From assembly GCA_964429815.1 (NCBI GenBank), contig CAYSCM010000001.1, forward strand, positions 160,001 to 224,000: DNA of 64,000 nt, read 5' to 3'. Position numbers and translations under genes: made by a program. The notes beneath the pieces were generated by a model that had not been told where the DNA came from, did no database searches, and saw only the letters and a list, made by a program, of their open reading frames with translations. The first letter of the stretch is position 1. Each line of letters starts with the position of its first letter. Of the stretch, positions 1 to 12,416 are shown in pieces. This DNA is from an uncultured Candidatus Saccharibacteria bacterium (GTDB lineage: Bacteria; Patescibacteriota; Minisyncoccia; Phycocordibacterales; CAYSCM01).

Positions 1-229
1 TATGCCCAATACTTATGGGGTATACGGGAACTTCACATTGCCAAGCAATTTTAAGAATTAGAGAAATTTCTTTTTCATTTTCTGGAAGCAAAGCTCCCCC
101 GATCTGCTTACTATCTAACTCTATTGTTGACGCACCATAACGTTCCTGAGCCACATCTGGAGGCAAGACTCTTGAGTTTCCGAGTAATCCCCTCCATTGT
201 TCTAATGCCTCGGTAAGCCCCTCTGACAT
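1..229 (-). CDS. FAD-linked oxidoreductase (FAD_binding_4/PCMH-type), N-terminal fragment; the gene runs off the left window edge
   Basis: Minus-strand ATG at 229 opens MSEGLTEALEQWRGLLGNSRVLPPDVAQERYGASTIELDSKQIGGALLPENEKEISLILKIAWQCEVPVYPISIGH and continues past position 1. The ...P..E.E...I.K.A....VPV.P.G.GH pattern is typical of the N-terminus of FAD-linked oxidases. It is the last gene of the AT-rich island operon. Confidence 0.4.
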   Translation of the reverse strand, partial: MSEGLTEALEQWRGLLGNSRVLPPDVAQERYGASTIELDSKQIGGALLPENEKEISLILKIAWQCEVPVYPISIGH

Positions 230-290
230 GCAGTAAGGCTATCATGAACTCTCCTTTGCTGGGTGCGAACTAATTCGCTTGGAGATTCAA

Positions 291-1427
291 CTAAAAATTG
301 AAGCCGACGCTAAGCAAAAACGTTTTGAATTCGGAAGAAACAGCAGCTAATTTCTCTGCGCGAGCTTTCAAAAAATCTGAATCTGAACGAGTAGCGAGAT
401 CTGAGAAAAAATTACGAATTATGACATTCTGGAACGAATCTGCAGTAGCTTCACTGAATTTTTGGAGAGTCAGCTTGATGTCGGATATCCGCTCATTTCC
501 ATAAAACTCTAGAAGAAAGTTTGCATAGAAAAATCTAGCCTGCATAAAGACACCCCGCGTTTGATAACTTTCCTCATCTTCTCCCACTTTCGGTAAAGCG
601 TCCTGGAACGCCATCTCTCGCTCCTGAACTGCAATGTTTTTTAATACTCGGCTACTCGCGTTCATGCTGATAGCACGATAAAGACGCTGTCTTGCTACAT
701 GACTTGGTTCATATACCAAAGAGCTTTTGGACATATCGCCTCGTTTGATAAGTTCCTGAATTCTTGTGGCAAGAGTTTCCTTAGTCATTCCATTTGGAAT
801 AAAATTATTCGTTAGGAAACCGCTATATAGATATGCCGCTGAATAATTTGCGAGTGAATTTGGATATTTCTGGTCAGAAAGTAGGAAAAAATTAATTGCG
901 ACTAGACGCATATCTTCAGATGTAGAGGTTGCGGGCAAAAAAGAATTGTAGGGGGCTTCCTTGAAATTTGTTTCATAAAAAGTTCGGTCGCGAGAAGCTA
1001 TAAGAAAACCGATATCATCCAGAGCAGCGGCTATATTTGCAGGTGAGGAGGATGTATCGGCCAGAAAAGTTTTGTATATCTGCAGAGCCTCGGTTCGGTC
1101 ATTTCCCTCATTTCGGTTCCAAAGATCGAACGCTAGCATTGCATTTAGATGAAATTTTGTATTACTGTCCTGCGCCTCGATGATGAGGCTCCTCTCAGCA
1201 TCAATCGAACCATTCAAATCTCCACTATGATGGAGAGTGTGTGCTTCTTCATAATTTTTCCCGAACAATGTCATGGTGGCGTTACCTTTGTAGTACAAAG
1301 CATACCAATAGTAAACACCACCTGAAATCGCAACAACTAAAAGAATCAGAGTTAGGCGGAATGCTACTCTAGAGCTTTGCGGTCGTGATCCGATTGATTG
1401 CTGATCTGGAGAACTCTCCATATTCAA
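291..1427 (-). CDS. Hypothetical membrane-anchored protein (one N-terminal TM helix, large soluble domain); island operon member
   Basis: 378-aa ORF. N-terminal hydrophobic segment LTLILLVVAISGGVYYWYALYY. K/N/Y/F-rich composition matches the AT-rich island. Start lies 13 nt after the upstream peptide stop. No recognisable motif. Confidence 0.5.
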   Translation of the reverse strand: MNMESSPDQQSIGSRPQSSRVAFRLTLILLVVAISGGVYYWYALYYKGNATMTLFGKNYEEAHTLHHSGDLNGSIDAERSLIIEAQDSNTKFHLNAMLAFDLWNRNEGNDRTEALQIYKTFLADTSSSPANIAAALDDIGFLIASRDRTFYETNFKEAPYNSFLPATSTSEDMRLVAINFFLLSDQKYPNSLANYSAAYLYSGFLTNNFIPNGMTKETLATRIQELIKRGDMSKSSLVYEPSHVARQRLYRAISMNASSRVLKNIAVQEREMAFQDALPKVGEDEESYQTRGVFMQARFFYANFLLEFYGNERISDIKLTLQKFSEATADSFQNVIIRNFFSDLATRSDSDFLKARAEKLAAVSSEFKTFLLSVGFNF

Positions 1428-1439
1428 ACGCTAGATTTT

Positions 1440-1751
1440 TTAGCAACACTCAAGACCACCACCTTGCACCGACGCTTCACAACTTCCTCCTCCCCCACCC
1501 CCTTCAGCAAATCCATATCCCGATTCAGAATAATATGATGACTGGCCATAGTATCCTGACTGGCCGTAGTACGTAGATTGACTATAAGGAGTATCGGCTG
1601 AAGTAACGTTTGGAACGGCAAGTCCGCCAAGATTCCCTACTGATGGCACAGCGGCTGACGAATCTTTATTCAATAGATTAGTGAAGAAAATAAAAACTAC
1701 CAGAGAGGCAAGTGACAAAGCATTGATAACTAGTTGTCCAAGCGAACGCAT
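1440..1751 (-). CDS. Small membrane-anchored Gly/Tyr/Ser-rich peptide with a C-terminal Cys-containing tail; candidate substrate or precursor of the adjacent YcaO
   Basis: 103 aa. N-terminal TM/signal-anchor LVINALSLASLVVFIFFTNLL. Low-complexity repeats YYGQSGYYGQSSYY. C-terminus GGGGGGSCEASVQGGGLECC. It sits directly downstream of the YcaO gene in the same operon. Confidence 0.45.
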   Translation of the reverse strand: MRSLGQLVINALSLASLVVFIFFTNLLNKDSSAAVPSVGNLGGLAVPNVTSADTPYSQSTYYGQSGYYGQSSYYSESGYGFAEGGGGGGSCEASVQGGGLECC

Positions 1752-1801
1752 ATGTTAATAATACCAAGTTGGACAAAGTAGCCCAAGAACTTATGAACAC
1801 C

Positions 1802-3334
1802 CTATGGAAACGGGTGGGGTGTCACATTCACCTCAAAGTCACTGCTATCTTTATATCCGAAAGGATATAAACGAGAAGAGCCGAGAGGTGCAAACGTTTC
1901 ATTCATATAAAGAGAAATAAGCCCGGGAACACAGATTTTTACTGAATGATAGTTGAGTTTTCGTAGAATGGGATGACTAGCTTCAAATAAAAATACTTCG
2001 TAAGCAGGACCTCTCGCCTTAAATAGTTCCAGTAACTCATCGAGTCTTTCTCGTGGGGATCGGATAGTTTTATCTTTCCTCAAAAAAGGTACGGGGGTGG
2101 CTGCGATAAAAAAAGAAAACCTGTCGAGAAGTTCTGGTTTCGCCCATAAGAGCTGGCGATTGAAAGCACCCCACTCAAGCGTAAAAGGTTCTATTGAATT
2201 CAGGGAAGGAAGTTCGTCACTTGGTTCATTAACGTTTTGCCAAATGCGCACACTGAGCGCCTCAACAAGAGCTCGTAACAACGAATCTTCGTCATCACCC
2301 CCACACCCACCACCAAGACTTACTGCAGCTCCTCTCCCAGTCCTATCTAACACTGCGGCAATATACACCGGAATACCTACAGCAGAGTCTAGCTGCATAA
2401 AATGAACTTCTAGACCTGCCTCCCTACATTCTTTAAGATGGTGGGTAATACGCGGATCGGTGAATGACTCGACACTTATTTTTTTTGGGATGCGTTTGGT
2501 AAGCCAGTACAGTAAAAATGCATCACGTTGAATAAGTTCATAAAGTCCCGATAGAATCGCCTCATCTCTAGTGAACATTCCCCCCGCCCCATTAGTGTTA
2601 GATTCACGTAACACGGGCTCACCCTCTGTTGCGCGGTAGTTAAAAAAAACCAGTTGTGCGGGAATGAGAGCGTCACGACGTTTTGTCAACGAATAACCTT
2701 CAACAAAGTTAAAAATGCTGTCCCTGGTAAAAAACCGTCTGGGAAAACGTTTTTTCTGCCATGTCGAAGCATGTGAAGCAAGGAAAGGGTCGAGGAAGTG
2801 TCTTTTCCCGCGCTCCAAATCGCTAATTGAGGCTCGGCACAGATCTTTTTCGCGATAAATTGATAGCGGGTAACGCTCGAGTAGTTCCCCGAATACCTTC
2901 GAGAGTGCTTCTTGTATATCACCAGATATCCCCCTACTGTATCCTCCGCTTGCCACTTCTGGGGAACCATCGGTTGGAGAATTTGCTGCCCAGAGCCTTA
3001 CCGCGAAAAGACTTGGCTCCCCATGTAAAACCTTATCGAAGGTAATGTTCGGTTGCTTTAAAACTCCATTTGCATATAAGTACTGGCTCAATATTTGCCA
3101 TTCTGGAGGAATAGGATATTGCTGGGTCGGAAGAATTTCTGGATAAGAAGGCAACGGGTGGCCATGTTTCAGTCGAAGTATATCGGCGAAAGAAACGGGT
3201 AAATGATATCGAAAATGTGGGCCGACTGGGTAGCGCAAAGGATAATTTACCTGGTTATAAAAAGGTAGATAGGTGCCTAGACCTCGTTGGTTTTCGGAAT
3301 TTTTTTCTAAAACCGTAATCGGTTGGTTAAGCAT
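1802..3334 (-). CDS. YcaO-domain protein (ATP-dependent amide-backbone activating enzyme family)
   Basis: ORF listed 1802..3460. The internal Met at 3334 gives an ATG overlapping the upstream TAA, typical translational coupling, so I take 3334 as the probable start. YcaO N-terminal motif GYSRGISGDIQEALSKVFGELLERY. Core motif SNTNGAGGMFTRDEAILSGLYELIQRDAF (compare E. coli YcaO SNGMSAGNTRNEARVQGLSEVFERY). Pro-rich C-terminus ...VTPHPFP as in azoline-forming YcaOs. Confidence 0.75.
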   Translation of the reverse strand: MLNQPITVLEKNSENQRGLGTYLPFYNQVNYPLRYPVGPHFRYHLPVSFADILRLKHGHPLPSYPEILPTQQYPIPPEWQILSQYLYANGVLKQPNITFDKVLHGEPSLFAVRLWAANSPTDGSPEVASGGYSRGISGDIQEALSKVFGELLERYPLSIYREKDLCRASISDLERGKRHFLDPFLASHASTWQKKRFPRRFFTRDSIFNFVEGYSLTKRRDALIPAQLVFFNYRATEGEPVLRESNTNGAGGMFTRDEAILSGLYELIQRDAFLLYWLTKRIPKKISVESFTDPRITHHLKECREAGLEVHFMQLDSAVGIPVYIAAVLDRTGRGAAVSLGGGCGGDDEDSLLRALVEALSVRIWQNVNEPSDELPSLNSIEPFTLEWGAFNRQLLWAKPELLDRFSFFIAATPVPFLRKDKTIRSPRERLDELLELFKARGPAYEVFLFEASHPILRKLNYHSVKICVPGLISLYMNETFAPLGSSRLYPFGYKDSSDFEVNVTPHPFP

Positions 3335-5216
3335 GTTTTTTATATAAAAGCCTTGATATACCGAGTAAAATATGTGCGCTGGAATCAACCCACGCATCGG
3401 GGTTATTGTTATCGTGACGAAATCCTCCAACAAGCTTGTCTTGTCGTTCTTTAGGAACAAAAAAAAGATTGGTTTCGTCGTACTGCATTTTAGAAAGCCA
3501 ATCTAGCGCTCTAGCAAGGACTACTTTGTTGTTTTTCGAGTCAACAGCCAAAACCTCAAAAATTTTTCCTGTACCTCGGGTAAAAGAAAAAACAGAATTT
3601 TTTGTTCGAGGAAATGACCCGTCACTATTTTGTGAATTTTTCATCCAGAAAGTCACACGGTCCACAACCTCCATATTGTGGGGGAAGAAAAGATTTACAA
3701 GTTCAGCGTATAAAGCAAACTCAATACCTTCTCGTTTCTCTATATCTTGGTCAAATTTTTCAACCAAACGTCTCTCAAGAACCGGGGCTCCGCTTTGCTC
3801 CCACTGTGCAACAGGCATAATGAGTCGAGCCAGACCAAGCGCATGTGACAGCGTTATCACATCGTCACGCCAATAAAGTGGCAATAGGGACGCTAAAAAT
3901 TTTTCTGCAAGCTTTCTTTCACCGAGAGCCCAGGCTGCTTTGCCCAGATAAGCTCTAGTTAGATCAGCGCCGGCAATTTCTCTGGGGCGCCGATCCAATT
4001 GCTTTTCTATAGCCGCCATGCCACGATGTGCCGCCTTAACATAGTCCCGTCCAATCGATATTTTGGAAAATTCCGCAAGCGCCCACACAGCATATGCCTG
4101 CCTGGGCCAATCAGCAGTAGGAGAAGTGTCCTTTCGAGCCGAGACAATGACACGGAAATTTCCATCTGCGTCTTGATTAAAAGAAAGCCAGGTGGCAATT
4201 TTTTGTGCGACAGCAATTTCATTCTCCGCATTTTCTTGTACAATAGGCCCCTTTAGCGAATATATAGTTCCTATTCTTTGCGGAAATTCTATAAGATCTT
4301 CCACTTCGAAACTTACTGTCTCGGCTTTATCGATTGAACCCTGTATCGAAGCTTTTTCCCTGGCAAGGTTTAATAACAATTCGGGCATTCCGGAAAAATG
4401 TCGAATATTGAATATTTCCGGCAAAAACCAACCGCGATGGCTGCCGAGAGCCAAAAGATACCCCTTATCAGTGTATATGTCGCTGTTCTGTTTTTCTTTT
4501 TGTGTGAGCGGAATACGTAAATGACCCATAAGCGTAATTTCGATTACGACAGTTTCAAGCTCACTAGGGCCTATAGGTTTAAAACGTGGATCTCGAGCAG
4601 CCATCATAGCCGCCGTGGCAACTGCTTGTCCGATTTCCTTATTTTCTATGATGATGGAGCCGCGAAATTGTCCCTCAATCCAGAATGCTACATCAACATC
4701 ATTACGTAAGTGTAGACGCGTAGATCTTTGTGGAAGAATAAATTTTTCATCTCCATTATTGACATAATGTGTAAGTGCATGCCGGGCAATCCTGAATAAC
4801 TCCTTCTTTTCTTCATTTAATAAACCCCACCGTAATGGCTGCGGTGAAACGTTTCGCTTTTTCGACTCACGTATCTGGATAGTTGGCGAGGAATATAGGA
4901 TGGCCCACATTTCATCTACTTCCACGGATATCGGTGAATATTCGATAATAAATGTTATAGAGTCTTTGGAAGGAGGTGGGGGGATTTCGATAGGATGGTC
5001 ACCATACGTGAGCGGAAATGAAAAAGAAAAATATCTAACCTTCCCCTTCCCTCTTAAACAAAGGATGTCCTCTTTATTCGCCAATGTGCTAATAAAAAGA
5101 AAAGTTTCTTCAATTTGACGAGAAAAATGTTTGTTAAAAAATCTCTTATGGGGGGTGAAAAAAAAACCCTTTCGCATGATGAAGGCATCATAACACTCAG
5201 AAAATATCTGTAACAA
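3327..5216 (-). CDS. AMMECR1-domain protein fused to a C-terminal alpha/alpha-toroid (prenyltransferase/terpene-cyclase-like or LanC-like) repeat domain
   Basis: AMMECR1 signature LNEEKKELFRIARHAL ... RGSIII ... AVATAAMMAARDPRF ... YLLALGSHRGWFLPEI. C-terminal Q-x-DG-x-F type repeats (NQDADGNFRV, NSQNSDGSFPR, VGGFRHDNNNPDAWVDSSAHILLGI). The true start may be an internal Met near 4910. Confidence 0.55.
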   Translation of the reverse strand: MLQIFSECYDAFIMRKGFFFTPHKRFFNKHFSRQIEETFLFISTLANKEDILCLRGKGKVRYFSFSFPLTYGDHPIEIPPPPSKDSITFIIEYSPISVEVDEMWAILYSSPTIQIRESKKRNVSPQPLRWGLLNEEKKELFRIARHALTHYVNNGDEKFILPQRSTRLHLRNDVDVAFWIEGQFRGSIIIENKEIGQAVATAAMMAARDPRFKPIGPSELETVVIEITLMGHLRIPLTQKEKQNSDIYTDKGYLLALGSHRGWFLPEIFNIRHFSGMPELLLNLAREKASIQGSIDKAETVSFEVEDLIEFPQRIGTIYSLKGPIVQENAENEIAVAQKIATWLSFNQDADGNFRVIVSARKDTSPTADWPRQAYAVWALAEFSKISIGRDYVKAAHRGMAAIEKQLDRRPREIAGADLTRAYLGKAAWALGERKLAEKFLASLLPLYWRDDVITLSHALGLARLIMPVAQWEQSGAPVLERRLVEKFDQDIEKREGIEFALYAELVNLFFPHNMEVVDRVTFWMKNSQNSDGSFPRTKNSVFSFTRGTGKIFEVLAVDSKNNKVVLARALDWLSKMQYDETNLFFVPKERQDKLVGGFRHDNNNPDAWVDSSAHILLGISRLLYKKHA

Positions 5217-5261
5217 AACTAGAAAAAAACGCTTTGCTCTGGTAGGATTCGACCACTATCT

Positions 5262-5333
5262 GCCCTCGTCGTTCAATGGATAGGACGCAAGCTTGCGGAG
5301 CTTGTAATGTCAGTTCGATTCTGGCCGAGGGCG
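5262..5333 (+). tRNA. tRNA-Arg, anticodon GCG by manual folding
   Basis: Cloverleaf: acceptor GCCCTCG/CGAGGGC; D-arm GTTC-AATGGATA-GGAC; anticodon arm CAAGC-TTGCGGA-GCTTG; T-arm GTCAG-TTCGATT-CTGGC; discriminator G. The anticodon assignment should be confirmed with tRNAscan-SE. Confidence 0.7.
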
Positions 5334-5549
5334 CACATAGGGATTTTTGCGCCCGGCCAAAATCGAACGGGAAGGGGTCGGGGAACGGGAGTTCCCCGGG
5401 AGGAAAGCAGAGCGAAGCTCGTCGGAAACCATGGGTTTCTGAAGAGCCACCCTGCGGCGAGTGAGATAGCGAAGCGTCTGGCCGAGGGCGCCCATTTCCC
5501 AAGCGCCGCTTTTGTGGCATCATCCCGAGAGCTTAGTGAGGAGAGTTCG

Positions 5550-6152
5550 ATGCTCCGCAAAGCCGTCCCTATGGCGACGGCCGCTGGGCTCGTCGCACTT
5601 CTATCAGCCGCTGAACCCCTAGAGACCACCTACAAAACGCTGACCTACCGGACGTACCGCGTGGATCTTTCCGGTCGTGCAATGGCTCTTACCGAAGAGC
5701 GCTACGAGTTTGTGAGCCGCGACCTAAACGGAAGAACTCGACTGCGTCTCACGGTCCGAAAGCTCCCCGACGGAGAGATCCTCGAGAAAGACATCCCTGT
5801 AGTCACGACCCGCTTCGGCAACCTAGAGCGTCGCGGGGAGCTTCGGTGGAGCCCCTACCGCCCTCGCATCATCGAGCGTGAGTACGACACCCGCATCGAC
5901 TACACGACTCGAATGGGAGCGCAAAAGATGGCTACCGGTCGATCATTCATGCTTTCGTATGGACTGCGCGAAGCCACCTACGCCGGGAAAATCTACAAGG
6001 CCTTCAAGGTGCGCTCCGACATTTTCGAAAATAACGGATCAATGACGCGATACAAGTGCGTGTACGTGTTTGAACTTCGAACTATCGCTTTTTGTCGAGA
6101 ACAGGGCACCGAAGCTGACATTGAAACCCGACTCGAAAAGGTTGAGAACTAA
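5550..6152 (+). CDS. Secreted hypothetical protein
   Basis: The 5' part of listed ORF 5307..6152 overlaps the tRNA and is spurious. The internal start MLRKAVPMATAAGLVALLSAAEP is a signal peptide. A hairpin-rich terminator region follows at about 6154-6226. Confidence 0.5.
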   Translation: MLRKAVPMATAAGLVALLSAAEPLETTYKTLTYRTYRVDLSGRAMALTEERYEFVSRDLNGRTRLRLTVRKLPDGEILEKDIPVVTTRFGNLERRGELRWSPYRPRIIEREYDTRIDYTTRMGAQKMATGRSFMLSYGLREATYAGKIYKAFKVRSDIFENNGSMTRYKCVYVFELRTIAFCREQGTEADIETRLEKVEN

Positions 6153-6244: not shown

Positions 6245-6511
6245 TTATGTGGAGTTTTTGCGTACCAAGGCGACGAGGCGGCTCTTTTTGCGGGCAGCGG
6301 CACCCGCCTTAATGACGCCACGCTTGGCTGCTTTATCGAGGGCCTGGAAAGCCTCCGGGAGGAGTTTCAGAGCATCGGCAGCTTTTCCGACAGCGACAAG
6401 ACGCCGGACCTCAGTCACGGCATCGTGCATCACGCGCTTGCGGCGCAGGTTGAAAACATACTTGCGCGAAGCATTGCGGATGGCCTTCTTGGCGTTCTTC
6501 GTAATCGGCAT
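6245..6511 (-). CDS. rpsT: 30S ribosomal protein S20
   Basis: MPITKNAKKAIRNASRKYVFNLRRKR... is typical of S20. Basic, about 88 aa. The start is the internal Met of the listed ORF. Confidence 0.85.
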   Translation of the reverse strand: MPITKNAKKAIRNASRKYVFNLRRKRVMHDAVTEVRRLVAVGKAADALKLLPEAFQALDKAAKRGVIKAGAAARKKSRLVALVRKNST

Positions 6512-6585
6512 GGGGAGCACTGTAGCCGAAAACCCGCCATGGCGCAACTACGCCGCAAGCGGGTTCTTTGCGGTATTATTGAGCC

Positions 6586-7164
6586 ATGATCGGCAGATTG
6601 CGCGGCACCGTTTCCGGAGGGACGGAGCGGGGCCTCATACTCGACGTAGGAGGTGTTGGTTATCGCGTCCACACCAACCCCCAAAGCAGCGCAAAGTGGC
6701 GCAAGGAACGCGGTGAGATTGTGCTCTACACCCACCTCGCGGTCCGCGAGGATTCCCTCGACCTCTATGGGTTTGAGACCGAAGAAGAGCTTTCTTTCTT
6801 TGAACTTCTCCTCTCCGTCTCGGGGATTGGGCCCAGGTCGGCGCTCAGCATTCTCGCGGTTGGAGACATTGGCGCGCTGCGAAGGGCAATCGGCGCGGGC
6901 GACACCTCCTACCTCACCAAGATCTCCGGGATCGGCAAAAAAACCGCGGAGCGTATTATTCTTGATCTTCGCGATAAAGCCGGTGGCGGCTCGGCAGAAG
7001 AGGCGGCACAACTGCGCGGCGACGTTGATGTGCTCGAAGCGCTCCGGGCACTGGGGTATGCCGGCAAAGAGGCCCGAGACGCCGTGGTGAAGGTGAGTCG
7101 GGAAGGTATGGATACGAACCAAAAACTCAAGGCGGCCCTGCGCGAGCTCGGCTCCGGCGTATGA
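6586..7164 (+). CDS. ruvA: Holliday junction DNA helicase subunit RuvA
   Basis: MIGRLRGTV... LDVGGVGYRV and HhH motifs LLSVSGIGPRSALSIL / LTKISGIGKKTAERIILDL. Confidence 0.9.
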   Translation: MIGRLRGTVSGGTERGLILDVGGVGYRVHTNPQSSAKWRKERGEIVLYTHLAVREDSLDLYGFETEEELSFFELLLSVSGIGPRSALSILAVGDIGALRRAIGAGDTSYLTKISGIGKKTAERIILDLRDKAGGGSAEEAAQLRGDVDVLEALRALGYAGKEARDAVVKVSREGMDTNQKLKAALRELGSGV

Positions 7165-8462: not shown

Positions 8463-9413
8463 ATGGCAGAAGGAGGTGGTGGCAAAGGCGCGGGCAGCGA
8501 TGCACTCTTTGTCATCATGGTGCTGGTCGTCCTCTTTATCGTTTGGGCGGCAAGCGGTGGCATCGAGCGGGCCCGCCAAGACCCCGGCTACTTCTTGAAA
8601 CCTCCAGCGCCGCTCGGCTCCGGCGAGGTCTACGGCAGCTCTCTGACGCAAGGAGTGCACCAAACCGGAGACGCCATTTCTCAGAGCCTCTCGCAAGCGC
8701 AAAGCGAGCTCGGCACAAACATTCCCGTTGGAACACTCTCTCCGTATCACGGTCTCGTCCATCTCACGACCATAAGCGGTGCAGGTAGCTTCGAGCCAGC
8801 GCAGGAATACGTCGAGATCGACTACAACGGGGAGGGTTCACAATCTATACCCGTTACGGGATGGCGCATTGTAAGCGCGGTCAGTAATTTCTCCGCCGTA
8901 CTCCCGCTTGGCACCCGTATCCCCAACTCCGGCGCGCTCTCCTACACGGAGCCCATATACCTGCGCCCGGGAGAACAGGCCTATATCGTGACCGGCCGCT
9001 CGCCCATCGGCTACTCGTTCCTCACCAACAAGTGCGTGCCATACTTCCAGCAGTTCCAGAACTTTTATCCGAGCCTCTTTAATTCCTGCCCCTACCCGAC
9101 AGACGAGCTCCTGCGCTCACAAAACCAAGCCGTCCACACCGACAACGCCTGCTACGACTTTGTCTCGACGCTTTCCTCTTGCCGGATCTATCTCACACCG
9201 CTTGACCCATCGCTCTCCGGAAGCTGCCAGAATTTCGTCGCTAACACGCTCACTTATACCGGCTGCGTGGAGAATCATCGCGCCGATGCCGACTTCTACG
9301 GGCACGACTGGCGAATCTACCTCAATCGTGACCAGTCGCTCTGGCGGGATCGTCGCGAAGTCATTAAACTCCTCGACCAGAACGGCCGCACGGTCGACGT
9401 GTTGACCTACTAA
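8463..9413 (+). CDS. Membrane-anchored protein with a lamin-tail-domain-like (LTD) fold
   Basis: N-terminal TM FVIMVLVVLFIVWAA. EYVEIDYNGEGSQSIPVTGWRIVSA...GEQAYIVTG resembles LTD. Several Cys in the C-terminal part. Confidence 0.45.
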   Translation: MAEGGGGKGAGSDALFVIMVLVVLFIVWAASGGIERARQDPGYFLKPPAPLGSGEVYGSSLTQGVHQTGDAISQSLSQAQSELGTNIPVGTLSPYHGLVHLTTISGAGSFEPAQEYVEIDYNGEGSQSIPVTGWRIVSAVSNFSAVLPLGTRIPNSGALSYTEPIYLRPGEQAYIVTGRSPIGYSFLTNKCVPYFQQFQNFYPSLFNSCPYPTDELLRSQNQAVHTDNACYDFVSTLSSCRIYLTPLDPSLSGSCQNFVANTLTYTGCVENHRADADFYGHDWRIYLNRDQSLWRDRREVIKLLDQNGRTVDVLTY

Positions 9414-9448
9414 CTTTGATTTACTACTTAAAGAGACCTAACGGACGC

Positions 9449-9486
9449 ATACTCAAATTCTAAGCTATAGCTTAGAATTTGAGTAT
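9449..9486. repeat. 38-bp perfect palindrome ATACTCAAATTCTAAGCTATAGCTTAGAATTTGAGTAT (copy A)
   Basis: Exact reverse-complement symmetry read from the sequence. It lies between convergent genes (8463..9413 + and 9508..9987 -). A near-identical copy is at 40736..40773. Confidence 0.65.
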
Positions 9487-9507
9487 CGAGAAAGCTATAT
9501 TCTCTGG

Positions 9508-9987
9508 CTACACTCCCTGCACGTAAGCAAGAGCGATGCCCGCAGCGACGGAGACGTTGAGCGATTCTTTAGAACCTCGCATAGGGATTTCAGCGAGGAC
9601 GTCGGCACCCTCGAGAAGGTTCTGACTGATTCCCTCGGTCTCGCTGCCGAGTATGAGGAGAATATGTTTGCCCTTTGGCAGAGCCGACACGGAGATCGAG
9701 CCGCTCCCCTGCTCGAGCGCGGCTATGAAAAAACCTTTCGCACGGTACGTGTCGATGACGGGGAGCCCCGCCTCGGTGTGCTCCCACTTCACCGTTTGTT
9801 CGGCGCCGAGGGAAACTTTGGCGAAATCCGCTCGAGCTCTTCCGAAGCGGTCGAGCGGAGTTGGTGTAGTGCCAACGCAGTAGATTCTTAAAACAGCAAA
9901 AGCATCTGCGGTGCGGAAAATTGAGCCGACGTTGTGGACACTTCGGATATTGTCGAGTATCAGCACGGTCTTTCGCCGTTGACTCAT
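9508..9987 (-). CDS. SpoU/TrmH-family RNA 2'-O-methyltransferase
   Basis: Internal start MSQRRKTVLILDNIRSVHNVGSIFRTADAF (SpoU motif 1) ... LILGSETEGIS ... SLNVSVAAGIALA (motifs 2 and 3). The listed 230-aa ORF has a spurious N-terminal extension. Confidence 0.75.
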   Translation of the reverse strand: MSQRRKTVLILDNIRSVHNVGSIFRTADAFAVLRIYCVGTTPTPLDRFGRARADFAKVSLGAEQTVKWEHTEAGLPVIDTYRAKGFFIAALEQGSGSISVSALPKGKHILLILGSETEGISQNLLEGADVLAEIPMRGSKESLNVSVAAGIALAYVQGV

Positions 9988-10651: not shown

Positions 10652-10655
10652 CAAG

Positions 10656-10729
10656 TCCGCCCGGCAGGACTCGAACCTGCGACCTTCTCCTTAAAAGGGA
10701 GCGGCTCTACCAAACTGAGCTACGGGCGG
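10656..10729 (-). tRNA. tRNA-Lys (anticodon TTT)
   Basis: Minus-strand read: CCGCCCG-TA-GCTC-AGTTTGGTA-GAGC-C-GCTCC-CTTTTAA-GGAGA-AGGTC-GCAGG-TTCGAGT-CCTGC-CGGGCGG-A. Anticodon loop CU-UUU-AA. Confidence 0.8.
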
Positions 10730-10807: not shown

Positions 10808-11449
10808 TTAACCTTCGTTCTCGAATCTCTCTTTAACGAAAGTAAGGAACTGTGAACTTACGACCGTCATGGCGGTCATGAGGCCGTATAAGATTACGAA
10901 GGTTATCACGGTCCAGAATGTTGACAGGGTCCTGCTGAAGATGGTCATCCAAGCGAAATAGAATACCATAACTGCGATGAGCCAGCTGCCAACATCCAAG
11001 TTGCGAAGTGTTATGGGACGAAGCCATTCGCATCGTTCGAAATACTTCGGCTTGCACTGCGCCCGAACATAAAAACGGGTAATGATCGCAGCGATGCCGA
11101 GGGCACTCATGAGAACAAACCACCAGTGTGATAATTCTCCCATTTTCAGTATCGCAGCGTACTCCAAGAAACCTAGCATGTAGGGAAATGCAACATCGGG
11201 GAAACGTGGTGTCGTTCTCATAATGAGTATCCACCAAGAGTATTCCGTTACTACCAGAAGTATTGCACACAATACTGCAAAAGCTTGAAGATAGAGCAAC
11301 ACGGACTCTTTTGTTTCTGCCATCCTCAAGATCAATCCACCAAGAGCGATGCTTTGGATTACTCCAAGCGAGGTGAGGTATGAAGAGGCAAAAAGTTCTT
11401 CAGAACGTCTCCGGAACTCGGCAGCATTTAGGGGCATGACAGCCTCCAT
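10808..11449 (-). CDS. Polytopic membrane protein, unknown family (paralog copy 1)
   Basis: 213 aa with about 6 hydrophobic helices (MPLNAAEFRRRSEELF...). A near-identical paralog lies 1 kb downstream. Confidence 0.6.
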   Translation of the reverse strand: MEAVMPLNAAEFRRRSEELFASSYLTSLGVIQSIALGGLILRMAETKESVLLYLQAFAVLCAILLVVTEYSWWILIMRTTPRFPDVAFPYMLGFLEYAAILKMGELSHWWFVLMSALGIAAIITRFYVRAQCKPKYFERCEWLRPITLRNLDVGSWLIAVMVFYFAWMTIFSRTLSTFWTVITFVILYGLMTAMTVVSSQFLTFVKERFENEG

Positions 11450-11785: not shown

Positions 11786-12416
11786 TCAGCTTTGGCGTTC
11801 AAATTCTTCCTTAAGCGACCTGAGGAAGTTTGAACTTATGATGGCCATCGAAACCATGAGGCCGTACAGGATGATGAAAGTTGTCACGGTCCAAAACGCT
11901 GACAGTGTTTTGCCAAAGATGGCCATCCATAGAAAATAGAAGGCCATCACAGCTACGAGACCACTGCCAATGTCAAGGTTGCGTAGCGTCAGTGGCCGGA
12001 CCCGGTCGCATTCTTCGAAATATTTTGGTTCGCATTGCCCTCGTACGTAGAAGCGCGTGATGATCGCTATGACGGCTGAGGCGGTCATACTGATATACCA
12101 CAGGGGTTCCTTGCCTATCAGCCAGCGCAATCGACACATACTCAAGGATTCCTAGCAGGTACGGAAAGACCGCGTCGAGAAAACTTGGTGTTTTCCTCAT
12201 AATTATTAGCCACCAAGTATATTCAGTTACCACCAGAAGTATTGCAAGTATTGCGGTCATGCCTTCTAACATGAGAACTGTTGAGGTTGGCGATTCAGCT
12301 ATTTTTAGTACGAGTCCACCAAGGGCGACACTTTGAATTACGCCGATCGAACTGAGATAAGACCCTGCAAACATTTCCTCGGAACGTCTTCTGAATTCCG
12401 CTGCGTTTAAAGGCAT
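11786..12416 (-). pseudogene. Frameshifted second copy of the polytopic membrane protein
   Basis: Two overlapping ORFs (11973..12416 and 11786..12145) together align end-to-end with copy 1. The frame switches near 12125-12135 (...EYVSIAL | GKEPLWYISMTASAVIAIITRFYVRGQC...). No homopolymer at the junction. Confidence 0.55.

Follow-up and report, generated by a model that had tools for sequence, protein, structure and literature searches.

YcaO proteins are the largest family of backbone-modifying RiPP enzymes, and RiPP precursors are almost always soluble and served by dedicated exporters and proteases. CPR bacteria are ultra-small, with tiny genomes, and live attached to their hosts. Precursors carrying a Sec signal were called rare in 2024 (bufferins, PMC11626156), and precursors with a transmembrane (TM) helix were first characterised in 2026 (TMcins, PMC13252029). 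In CPR bacteria, genome mining has uncovered linear azol(in)e peptide (LAP) clusters (Sharrar et al, 2020, mBio; PMC7298704); the parts of that report considered here describe a precursor of ~84 amino acids (aa) next to YcaO and count 110 clusters across 93 additional CPR genomes, the majority having a nitroreductase gene beside YcaO. The locus analysed here is almost certainly one of this population and falls into the minority without a nitroreductase. Those parts of the report describe YcaO, nitroreductase and peptidase only, and do not mention a signal-anchor leader, an AxA↓D-x-P junction (the arrow marks the boundary between leader and core), an AMMECR1/toroid partner, a TPR membrane protein or Hint fusions. 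Our literature search turned up no earlier account of such a leader, of the AMMECR1 partner or of Hint-fused relatives.

With microcin B17 and the other thiazole/oxazole-modified microcin (TOMM)/LAP systems (McbBCD; SagBCD) the locus shares the SagD type of YcaO, G-S-C and G-C sites in a core rich in Gly and, in its relatives, a SagB/McbC dehydrogenase. It differs from them in that there is no E1-like McbB/SagC, an AMMECR1/toroid protein being coupled and sometimes fused to YcaO, in that the leader starts with a transmembrane segment and the cores are strongly acidic, and in that the cluster has no dehydrogenase, ABC exporter or TldD/E-type protease. Bufferins, which are MNIO-modified RiPP metallophores, combine a Sec signal, Cys heterocycles made in the cytoplasm and cleavage by signal peptidase, without a dedicated transporter (PMC11626156); this resembles the working logic that we propose for the peptide and is a precedent for the export route. 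The likeness is one of logic only and the locus is no member of that class: it encodes a YcaO enzyme where bufferins have MNIO/DUF692 and DUF2063 proteins, and no MNIO (DUF692) or DUF2063 domain was found in the cluster. Moreover, the bufferin signal peptide is conventional and without a long spacer, and the bufferin product is a small folded protein, whereas the present product would be a low-complexity acidic peptide. TMcins (PMC13252029) likewise have a single TM helix in the precursor and a cluster-encoded membrane "escort" protein, but their helix is part of the mature product, they have no YcaO, and they use an S2P-like intramembrane protease, DsbA and an ABC transporter for processing, unlike the present cluster.

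The window, that is, the whole stretch of 64,000 nucleotides that was analysed, comes from a CPR/Patescibacteria bacterium and carries a tightly packed row of genes on one strand, encoding an AMMECR1/toroid protein, YcaO, a small peptide and a membrane TPR protein. A sequence-only reading had singled out the peptide as a putative YcaO substrate. Its ORF (1440..1751, minus strand, end coordinate including the stop) has an ATG start and encodes 103 aa, MRSLGQLVINALSLASLVVFIFFTNLLNKDSSAAVPSVGNLGGLAVPNVTSADTPYSQSTYYGQSGYYGQSSYYSESGYGFAEGGGGGGSCEASVQGGGLECC, exactly as that reading had described the peptide; hexa-Gly makes up residues 84-89 and SCEASVQGGGLECC residues 90-103. The claimed position right after the YcaO gene is likewise correct, with 50 nt between the YcaO stop and the start of the peptide ORF. 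We regard the ORF, with a probability of about 70%, as encoding the precursor of a ribosomally made, YcaO-modified peptide in a TOMM/LAP-type system, a reading supported by comparative genomics. The same DNA occurs, identical, in two assemblies made independently from other samples (L001 and L046). In these assemblies one gene caller skipped the peptide ORF and called a 41-aa ORF in another frame instead.

Homologous short ORFs beside other YcaO genes, which the sequence-only reading had made a test of its proposal, are indeed present. An ORF of the same architecture lies near YcaO in 32 of 43 CPR YcaO loci according to a leave-out HMM (E <= 0.01) and in 35 of the 43 by inspection. A word-indexed homologue search with the window peptide had returned one relative only; the family came to light only when the neighbourhoods of YcaO homologues were read and a full HMMER scan was run. 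Its members share an N-terminal TM helix, a spacer of 13-37 aa, an (A/V/T)-x-A↓D-(V/A/T)-P junction and a hypervariable acidic core rich in Gly, Ser and Cys. The window peptide follows this plan, with a positively charged N-terminal flank and a single helix, a TSA↓DTP junction and an acidic Cys-containing core near YcaO. Most HMM matches (24/33) share the strand of the YcaO match and lie at most 1 kb downstream of it, and 28 of the 33 lie within 3 kb of YcaO. The Tyr-repeat subfamily to which the window peptide belongs has a YcaO gene within ~4 kb in all nine recovered contexts (the window, L002, L004, L043, L047, L048, L050, L051 and L052), directly adjacent in eight of them. Gene order and peptide architecture together recur across dozens of CPR loci, and the family is conserved in CPR bacteria yet barely described. 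In three relatives (L027, L040 and P0134) a Hint domain starting with Cys directly follows the core (PT-HINT, 48.6 bits). These Hint-fused relatives, which resemble Hedgehog/Hint autoprocessing proteins, imply a C-terminal autoprocessing of the peptide as judged from domain matches; the window peptide itself has no Hint domain and ends in -ECC.

The N-terminus had been described as a membrane anchor. A hydrophobic segment is present there (1671..1742, minus strand; about residues 4-27, after Arg2), its hydrophobic stretch proper spanning residues 7-27, with a best 19-residue Kyte-Doolittle mean of 2.15 at residues 4-22 (family range 1.1-2.8), but a permanent anchor is the less likely reading of it. 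Because a Sec-type n-region and h-region are followed by a spacer and a conserved junction, the segment looks more like a signal-anchor leader with a signal-peptidase-like site. The N-terminal flank is net positive in 33/35 family members and the flank past the helix is approximately neutral. The junction, T50-S-A↓D-T-P55 in the window peptide (1587..1604, minus strand), has at position -3 Ala in 27, Val in 5 and Thr in 3 of 35 peptides, and no other residue; position +3 is Pro in 20 of the 35. Hydropathy, charge bias and the -3/-1 rule were the signal-peptide criteria checked on the window peptide, whose spacer length is atypical: 23-30 residues separate helix and junction, depending on the helix end chosen, within the 13-37 residues spanned by the family. 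The c-region of a normal signal peptide is far shorter, and the protease may therefore not be signal peptidase I, or the peptide could stay anchored. No type I signal peptidase motif (S26 boxes B and E) turned up in a search of the window and every locus, so that any signal peptidase acting here, if one acts, is encoded elsewhere in the genome. Since the 9.4-kb cluster contains no transporter or protease genes, the N-terminal segment would route the peptide via the general Sec/YidC pathway.

Cores in the family are 20-72 aa long and hypervariable and the leader is conserved, which is the usual pattern of RiPP precursors. The first part of the window core consists of Tyr/Gln/Ser/Gly repeats, YSQSTYYGQSGYYGQSSYYSESGYGF (1509..1586, minus strand; residues 56-81), in which Y56, Q58, Y61, Y62 and Y67 are invariant in an alignment of the 11-member subfamily. 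Tyr repeats are found in other CPR proteins too: YYxQS repeats come directly behind the ordinary AxA sites of signal peptides in secreted proteins and are also carried by a pilin-like protein; the repeats of the window peptide are probably an extracellular module and not the YcaO target. They are degenerate at the DNA level, Tandem Repeats Finder detecting no DNA repeat beneath them (1400..1800). The second part, an acidic Gly-rich tail, AEGGGGGGSCEASVQGGGLECC (1443..1508, minus strand), holds Cys91, Cys102 and Cys103 as predicted cyclodehydration sites, and the pattern G-C-E-(A/S/T)-(G/S)-x-(Q/A)-G...(E/D/G)-C is common to the four closest relatives. The whole window core contains three Cys and 11 Ser and has a net charge of -5. 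Across the family, cores hold 135 Cys (8.7% of residues) and leaders only two (0.1%), and 106 of the 135 core Cys follow a Gly, Ser or Ala, which makes the Cys residues likely modification sites. Alternatively, the two conserved Cys positions, which are ~11 residues apart, could become linked by a disulfide once the peptide is exported.

The YcaO gene (1802..3334, minus strand) encodes 510 aa from the called start, in an open frame that reaches 3460, and its product ends in ...PHPFP. It matches Pfam YcaO with 162.6 bits (cut-off 25.7); the best NCBIfam match is the SagD-type TIGR03604, which covers model positions 5-377 of 377 with 180.7 bits, below the curated cut-off of 219. The ATP-site motifs SKxxGExxER and ExxQRD and the C-terminal P-H-x-F-P residues are invariant (K146, G149, E150, E153, R154, E266, R270, D271, P506, H507, F509 and P510). 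An AF2 model (pLDDT 86) shows a bare YcaO domain, for which MusD (7u58) is the best PDB match; the cyanobactin heterocyclases LynD and TruD score almost equally, and the fold also matches McbD. The SagD-type match, the Pro-rich C-terminus and the presence of SagB in 35 of the 43 relatives point to azol(in)e chemistry.

The SagB/McbC FMN-dependent dehydrogenase is needed for azoles, not for azolines. Neither the 64-kb window nor the 17.7-kb locus L046 contained a SagB homologue, whereas the SagB nitroreductase gene is adjacent in those 35 relatives; L048 and L004 have it at the matching chromosomal position, with tRNA-Arg on one side and the AMMECR1 gene on the other. Comparison of these loci indicates that SagB was lost here and that its absence is private to this genome, so that azolines are expected and not azoles. 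Without SagB, the pathway could be partly decayed.

The gene for the AMMECR1 protein (3327..5177, minus strand; 616 aa) overlaps the YcaO start with its stop by 8 nt. The product combines an AMMECR1 domain, conserved from archaea to humans but of unknown biochemistry, with a probable alpha/alpha-toroid of QW-like repeats, and we propose it as the partner of YcaO. P0123 is a natural AMMECR1-toroid-YcaO fusion in one chain of 1056 aa, with a family peptide (TAHA↓DVP and a Cys-rich core) and then a TPR homologue downstream. No cluster protein matched an E1-like/ThiF, Ocin-ThiF or PqqD-type partner, and no recognisable RRE (RiPP recognition element, a leader-binding domain) was found in the cluster proteins, which counts against the precursor reading; no fold could be assigned to the first 125 aa of the AMMECR1 protein, and an RRE is possible there. 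A homologue search with this protein returned a single protein, and the AF2 model built from two sequences (pLDDT 39) was discarded. As there was no alignment for structure prediction, the toroid assignment draws on sequence matches in Pfam and the PDB, all of them weak, to SQHop_cyclase_C, TED and TEP1. A LanC-like Zn site in the toroid is unlikely because there is no invariant Cys. Among peptide-bearing loci, a C-terminal Cys is found in 7 of 15 with the AMMECR1 gene and in 2 of ~20 without it, a tally that is phylogenetically confounded; that the toroid acts like a prenyltransferase on the C-terminal Cys is only an idea.

The membrane-anchored TPR-like protein (291..1427, minus strand; 376-378 aa) matches consensus TPR proteins in profile searches. 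It has a homologue in 25 of the 43 loci, in most of them directly behind the peptide, and we propose it as an extracytoplasmic binder or escort of the exported peptide. A role as the leader protease was rejected, the protein having TPR-like repeats only and no invariant catalytic residues.

Taken together, the pathway would most likely run as follows. Residues 1-52 would act as a combined export signal and leader, composed of Arg2, the helix at ~4-27, the spacer of 23-30 aa and a beta-strand-like hydrophobic pattern up to T-S-A. As YcaO is cytoplasmic but the core ends up outside the cell, modification must precede export on this model: before export, the ATP-dependent YcaO would turn Cys91, Cys102 and Cys103, and possibly Ser90, into azolines, the translationally coupled AMMECR1/toroid protein working with it in place of the usual E1-like partner. 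With the SagB FMN dehydrogenase lost, the rings would probably stay thiazolines unless another oxidase acts. Directed by its N-terminal segment, the peptide would leave through the general Sec/YidC pathway and be cut in the manner of signal peptidase at A52↓D53, which would release 51 residues with a net charge of -5, consisting of the Tyr-repeat half and the Gly/Cys heterocycle half. The membrane TPR protein would probably bind or escort the peptide at the cell surface. Candidate roles of the product are metal binding, host attachment or antagonism.

That the ORF is a chance open frame rather than a gene has a negligible probability. Such a reading could point to its omission by one gene caller and to the lack of a clear Shine-Dalgarno sequence, promoter or terminator; in 1..5600, scans for promoters and terminators gave nothing above shuffled expectation. 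It is nevertheless effectively refuted by the conservation of the peptide, which keeps its syntenic gene position and has homologues of the same architecture, 30-47% identical across the aligned peptide, from 10 or more further metagenomic sources. A leader HMM from whose training set the window peptide and its two closest relatives were left out recovered the window ORF among 9,891 six-frame segments (E = 6.4e-4, 19.1 bits) as the sole match within the 64-kb window, although a score of 19.1 bits is modest, which counts against the precursor reading. An NCBIfam search with the peptide gave no match, and a Pfam match to the YxzE-like "putative bacteriocin" (E = 0.0016; 19.9 bits, cut-off 40) was dismissed as an artefact of composition and the TM segment.

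Two further readings accept the gene and are both improbable. The peptide may be a substrate of the YcaO pathway whose main chemistry is something other than Cys azolines: a backbone thioamide or amidine, a MusD-like ATP-dependent backbone cleavage, or a tailoring of the Tyr repeats or C-terminus by the FAD oxidase, PaaK-like adenylating enzyme or sulfotransferase-like protein of the cluster. MusD, the best structural match, is a YcaO with ATP-dependent peptidase activity (PMC10885120), but LynD and TruD reach nearly the same score, and the SagD-type sequence match, the C-terminus and the SagB genes of the relatives speak for azol(in)es. The lack of a dehydrogenase in the locus would suit such chemistry, and so would the invariant Tyr residues and the recurrence in the closest clusters of the PaaK-like gene and of the gene for the 579-aa VAO-type FAD_binding_4 oxidase (N-terminus at 1..229, minus strand; the gene belongs to the same low-GC cluster and runs off the window). 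The sulfotransferase-like match, with 26.4 bits against a cut-off of 27, is a further point in its favour. Against it, the cluster shows no TfuA or sulfur-donor gene, and the sulfotransferase-like gene was not found in the related loci. Slightly less credible still is an ordinary small surface peptide, secreted or membrane-tethered, of low complexity and with an adhesive or structural role, which is co-located or co-regulated with YcaO and stays unmodified, its Cys forming a disulfide outside the cell. The Sec-signal-like N-terminus with its AxA-like junction would fit this, as would the failure to recognise a leader-binding domain and the YYxQS repeats in pilin-like and signal-peptide proteins that lack the layout of a YcaO-type precursor (judged from the proteins alone). 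However, the adjacency to YcaO persists down to ~25-30% YcaO identity and through changes of gene order, the hypervariable cores are always rich in Cys and Ser and their Cys follow Gly or Ser, like those of microcin B17-like substrates, and these clusters offer YcaO and SagB no other candidate substrate. The sequence-only reading had itself named, as a refutation, the case that another small ORF proves to be the substrate; no other one in the cluster fits.

If a YcaO pathway with a signal-anchored leader is borne out, the logic of Sec-signal and TM-helix precursors extends to the YcaO family. More tentatively, and with the odds against it, the loci may constitute a separate CPR YcaO RiPP class, defined by a signal-anchored precursor that is modified before Sec-type export and cut at AxA↓D-x-P (in relatives with C-terminal Hint autoprocessing), by an obligatory AMMECR1/alpha-toroid partner replacing the E1-like/RRE protein, and by a thiazoline-bearing acidic Tyr-repeat surface peptide held by the membrane TPR protein, for epibiont-host contact or metal handling. 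The coupling of AMMECR1 to YcaO and the one natural fusion suggest a concrete, testable function for the AMMECR1 domain; an obligatory partnership, if true, would be its first biochemical role. Since tiny, host-attached CPR genomes keep a multi-gene investment in an exported modified peptide, the product likely matters for their lifestyle.

The chromosomal setting bears on the age of the cluster, which has a GC content of 40-44% against 56-58% in its flanks and is bordered upstream by tRNA-Arg(gcg) (5262..5334, plus strand). A recently inserted genomic island at this tRNA was considered and rejected: the cluster adjoins the same tRNA-Arg(gcg) in L048 and L004, so this genome did not acquire it recently on its own. 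In L048 the RuvA, S20 and TPR neighbours are present as well. The SagB-minus window locus and the SagB-plus relatives at the same locus provide a ready comparison of azoline with azole products.

The ORF at 1440..1751 (minus strand) had been described by the sequence-only reading as a membrane-anchored peptide with Tyr/Gly/Ser repeats and a C-terminal Cys pair, putatively the substrate of the neighbouring YcaO. Its translation (103 aa) agrees exactly with the peptide described, with a hydrophobic stretch at residues 7-27, a Tyr/Gly/Ser stretch at 56-81 (YSQSTYYGQSGYYGQSSYYSESGYGF), a hexa-Gly at 84-89 and SCEASVQGGGLECC at 90-103; no tandem repeat was found at the DNA level under the peptide repeats. 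The ORF indeed lies directly downstream of the YcaO gene, 50 nt separating the YcaO stop from the ORF start. Its DNA was recovered identically in two other assemblies (loci L001 and L046), in which one gene caller skipped the ORF and called another frame instead.

A direct homologue search with the window peptide returned a single relative, P0002, encoded on a 1.1-kb groundwater contig and flanked on one side by the C-terminal end of a YcaO (...PQPFP) and on the other by a TM/TPR-like protein. We defined the family by inspecting the DNA around 43 CPR YcaO homologues; the source of YcaO homologues was always a CPR/Patescibacteria metagenome bin. The majority of these loci have a small ORF, mostly just downstream of YcaO or of an intervening gene for SagB, an FMN dehydrogenase (nitroreductase). 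In the plan that these peptides share, a positively charged N-terminal end leads into a single hydrophobic helix, 13-37 spacer residues separate this helix from an (A/V/T)-x-A|D-(V/A/T)-P junction (TSA|DTP in the window peptide), and beyond the junction lies a hypervariable core of 20-72 residues. As A (-1) and D (+1) served to place the cut, these two residues count as no independent evidence; among the 35 members, -3 is occupied by A (27), V (5) or T (3) and +3 by P in 20, with Phe common at -8 and mostly aliphatic residues at -6 and -4. By composition the cores are 27% Gly, 19% Ser, 9% Asp, 9% Ala, 8% Cys and 7% Glu; one of the 35 has no net charge, and the other 34 range from -2 to -12. 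Cys is ~85-fold enriched in cores versus leaders (135 Cys, 8.7%, versus 2 Cys, 0.1%), and Gly, Ser or Ala precedes 106 of the 135 core Cys.

With the window peptide and the two relatives nearest to it left out of training, a leader HMM found the window ORF as its sole match in the 64-kb window (E = 6.4e-4). Small ORFs beside homologous YcaO genes had been named as a check on the substrate reading, and the HMM matches one in 32 of the 43 CPR loci (E <= 0.01), 28 of its 33 matches lying within 3 kb of YcaO; three further loci (L032, L040, L041) fit the plan by eye. These results support a refined form of the earlier proposal, in which the ORF encodes a predicted YcaO substrate peptide. In place of the Gly/Ser/Cys-rich precursor, wrong-frame ORFs were called automatically at L046:7930-8055 and L053:9438-9737, and the family is probably under-annotated in public data.

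To collect closer relatives, a two-sequence profile was scanned with HMMER against 1.84 billion representative proteins, giving 18 matches at E <= 0.001. Seven further matches, peptides of ~100 aa, combine a TM helix and ADTPYSQ with YYGQS repeats and a Gly/acidic/Cys tail; P0125, one of these, has the C-terminus ...GGCETGLQGGGGNECC, closely mirroring the window peptide. A52, D53, Y56, Q58, Y61, Y62 and Y67 are invariant in an 11-member alignment, and the four closest members have G-C-E-(A/S/T)-(G/S)-x-(Q/A)-G...(E/D/G)-C in common. YcaO adjoins the peptide or lies within 4 kb in all recovered contexts (window, L002, L004, L043, L047, L048, L050, L051, L052). YYxQS repeats were also seen in the pilin-like P0128 and, directly after ordinary AxA signal-peptide sites, in the secreted proteins P0136 and P0139, which points to an extracellular module.

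The peptide belongs to a tightly packed gene row, all on the minus strand, in which a 616-aa protein with an AMMECR1 domain and a probable alpha/alpha toroid (5177..3327) precedes YcaO (510 aa, 3334..1802; Pfam YcaO 162.6 bits), its stop overlapping the YcaO start by 8 nt. Downstream of the peptide follow a single-pass membrane protein with TPR-like repeats (1427..291), in which no conserved catalytic residues were found, and the start of a VAO-type FAD_binding_4 oxidase gene that runs off the window (229..1). A tRNA-Arg(gcg) (5262..5334) adjoins the cluster, which spans ~9.4 kb (window 1-5250; L046:4000-13400) at 40-44% GC, the housekeeping genes on its flanks having 56-58%; in a relative with the cluster in the same neighbourhood the contrast is smaller (45-51% versus 50-56%). 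No transporter or protease gene is present in the cluster.

The top NCBIfam match of YcaO is a SagD-type cyclodehydratase model, aligned end to end at 180.7 bits and thus under the curated 219. Across 29 homologues, SKxxGExxER, ExxQRD and P-H-x-F-P at the C-terminus do not vary. The AF2 model (pLDDT 86, pTM 0.89) consists of a bare YcaO domain whose N-terminus is disordered; it is nearest in the PDB to 7u58 (MusD), LynD and TruD, followed by archaeal thioamidating YcaOs, E. coli YcaO and McbD. Among the cluster proteins, neither E1-like, Ocin-ThiF-like, TfuA or PqqD-type domains nor any leader-binding domain was identified.

We propose that the AMMECR1 protein, encoded upstream of YcaO in 15 of the 43 loci, is the partner of YcaO. 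The main argument is a Rosetta-stone fusion in the right genomic context: P0123 (1056 aa, C-terminus FPHPYP; L053:6001-9171) joins AMMECR1, toroid and YcaO naturally; next comes an uncalled ORF (9257-9733) that combines a TM helix and TAHA|DVP with an extremely Cys-rich core, and after it a TPR-protein homologue. This cluster lies between rpsG (S7) and fusA (EF-G), and a second, divergent YcaO and nitroreductase pair is found upstream of it.

SagB-type nitroreductases occur in 35 of the 43 loci and are absent from the window and from L046, the same organism. The window shares Mur ligase, RuvA, S20, tRNA-Arg(gcg), cluster and TPR protein with L048, and the tRNA-Arg with L004. At this chromosomal site both relatives have SagB flanked by the tRNA-Arg and the AMMECR1 gene (L048:3646-4518, L004:3210-4088), where the window has only 84 nt from the tRNA to the called start of AMMECR1 (site 5217-5261), so that the dehydrogenase was most probably lost in this lineage.

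The mechanism that we propose builds on gene order, translational coupling, the absence of SagB, transporter and protease and the AMMECR1-YcaO fusion, together with the family-wide leader plan, the Cys-enriched cores and the YcaO type. The precursor would be made in the cytoplasm and, given its length of ~100 aa, would have to be exported post-translationally. A YcaO/AMMECR1 complex would recognise the spacer and junction region and cyclodehydrate Cys91, Cys102, Cys103 and possibly Ser90 to azolines. The N-terminal signal-anchor would then carry the acidic core across the membrane via the general pathway, and a cut after A52 would release a 51-residue peptide that the membrane TPR protein may bind. 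One weak point is that normal signal peptides have the AxA site much closer to the hydrophobic segment; another is that the search of the cluster proteins recognised no domain for binding the leader.

Other YcaO chemistry, or tailoring by other cluster enzymes, is an unlikely alternative to azoline formation. Left of the window, L046 encodes the FAD_binding_4 oxidase (579 aa, L046:9250-10989), a protein with GxGRSGTS and a borderline resemblance to sulfotransferases (L046:11220-11984; 26.4 bits, cut-off 27) and an adenylating enzyme of PaaK/CapK-like type (L046:11987-13417); the closest clusters also carry the oxidase and PaaK-like genes, without the sulfotransferase-like gene. VAO-type flavoenzymes act on 4-alkylphenols, which raises Tyr tailoring as a question for the oxidase. 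The SagD-type match and the Cys-enriched cores are in line with azol(in)e chemistry.

That the product is an unmodified surface peptide merely co-located with YcaO we consider rather improbable. The occurrence of its repeats in pilin-like and secreted proteins speaks for this reading; on the other side stand the recurrent YcaO neighbourhood and the core Cys. Among the proteins from the representative-library scan, YYGQS/YYSQS/YYTQS recurs as a low-complexity module of one type IV pilin-like protein and of signal-peptide proteins (P0128, P0135, P0136, P0139). A chance ORF, skipped as it was by one gene caller, is scarcely credible beside the leader HMM match.

Substrate peptides of this kind belong to a known type of system. 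According to a 2020 genome-mining report, CPR LAP clusters with a precursor beside YcaO number 110, with a nitroreductase in 89 (PMC7298704). Our literature search found no description of a signal-anchor leader with an AxA|D-x-P junction, an AMMECR1/toroid partner, the TPR membrane protein, Hint-fused precursors, the Tyr-repeat subfamily or a SagB-less state at a conserved locus, and no paper linking AMMECR1 to YcaO or to RiPPs. The proposed export logic has a precedent in bufferins (PMC11626156), RiPPs with a Sec signal and Cys-derived heterocycles whose maturation takes place at the signal-peptidase site, and the proposed cleavage has one in a RiPP pathway in which a SipW-type signal peptidase acts (PMC13381572); TMcins also have a TM helix, but within the product and without YcaO. 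A 2023 review of RiPP leader proteases nowhere mentions signal peptidase. The interest lies chiefly in the export logic and the AMMECR1-YcaO link.

In certain relatives a Hint/intein-like domain whose first residue is Cys (...GG|CFPAGTPV; PT-HINT 48.6 bits) directly continues the chain of the precursor core, as in two tandem copies at L040:5474-6277 and 6366-7064, at L027:5484-6293 and in P0134 (L051:8001-8843), which implies Hedgehog-like C-terminal autoprocessing of these putative YcaO substrates. SagB-containing YcaO clusters often have as a neighbour a 588-aa protein that joins a phosphoribosyltransferase domain and a PQQ-like beta-propeller (L029:4194-5960, with homologues in 14 further loci). 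In three loci (L031:7540-8664, L036:7574-8704, L012:9004-10146) another membrane-anchored protein of ~375 aa, with weak C-terminal TPR matches and no Pfam assignment, replaces the TPR membrane protein and could correspond to the 'peptidase' of the 2020 report (PMC7298704). Finally, a pair of multi-pass membrane paralogues (N-terminus MPLNAAEFRRRSEE...) is encoded on the minus strand of the window near a tRNA-Lys (10655-10729), one at 10808-11449 and a second at 11786-12416; a frameshift is suggested for the second, which appears to be split into two overlapping ORFs, 11973-12416 and 11786-12145.
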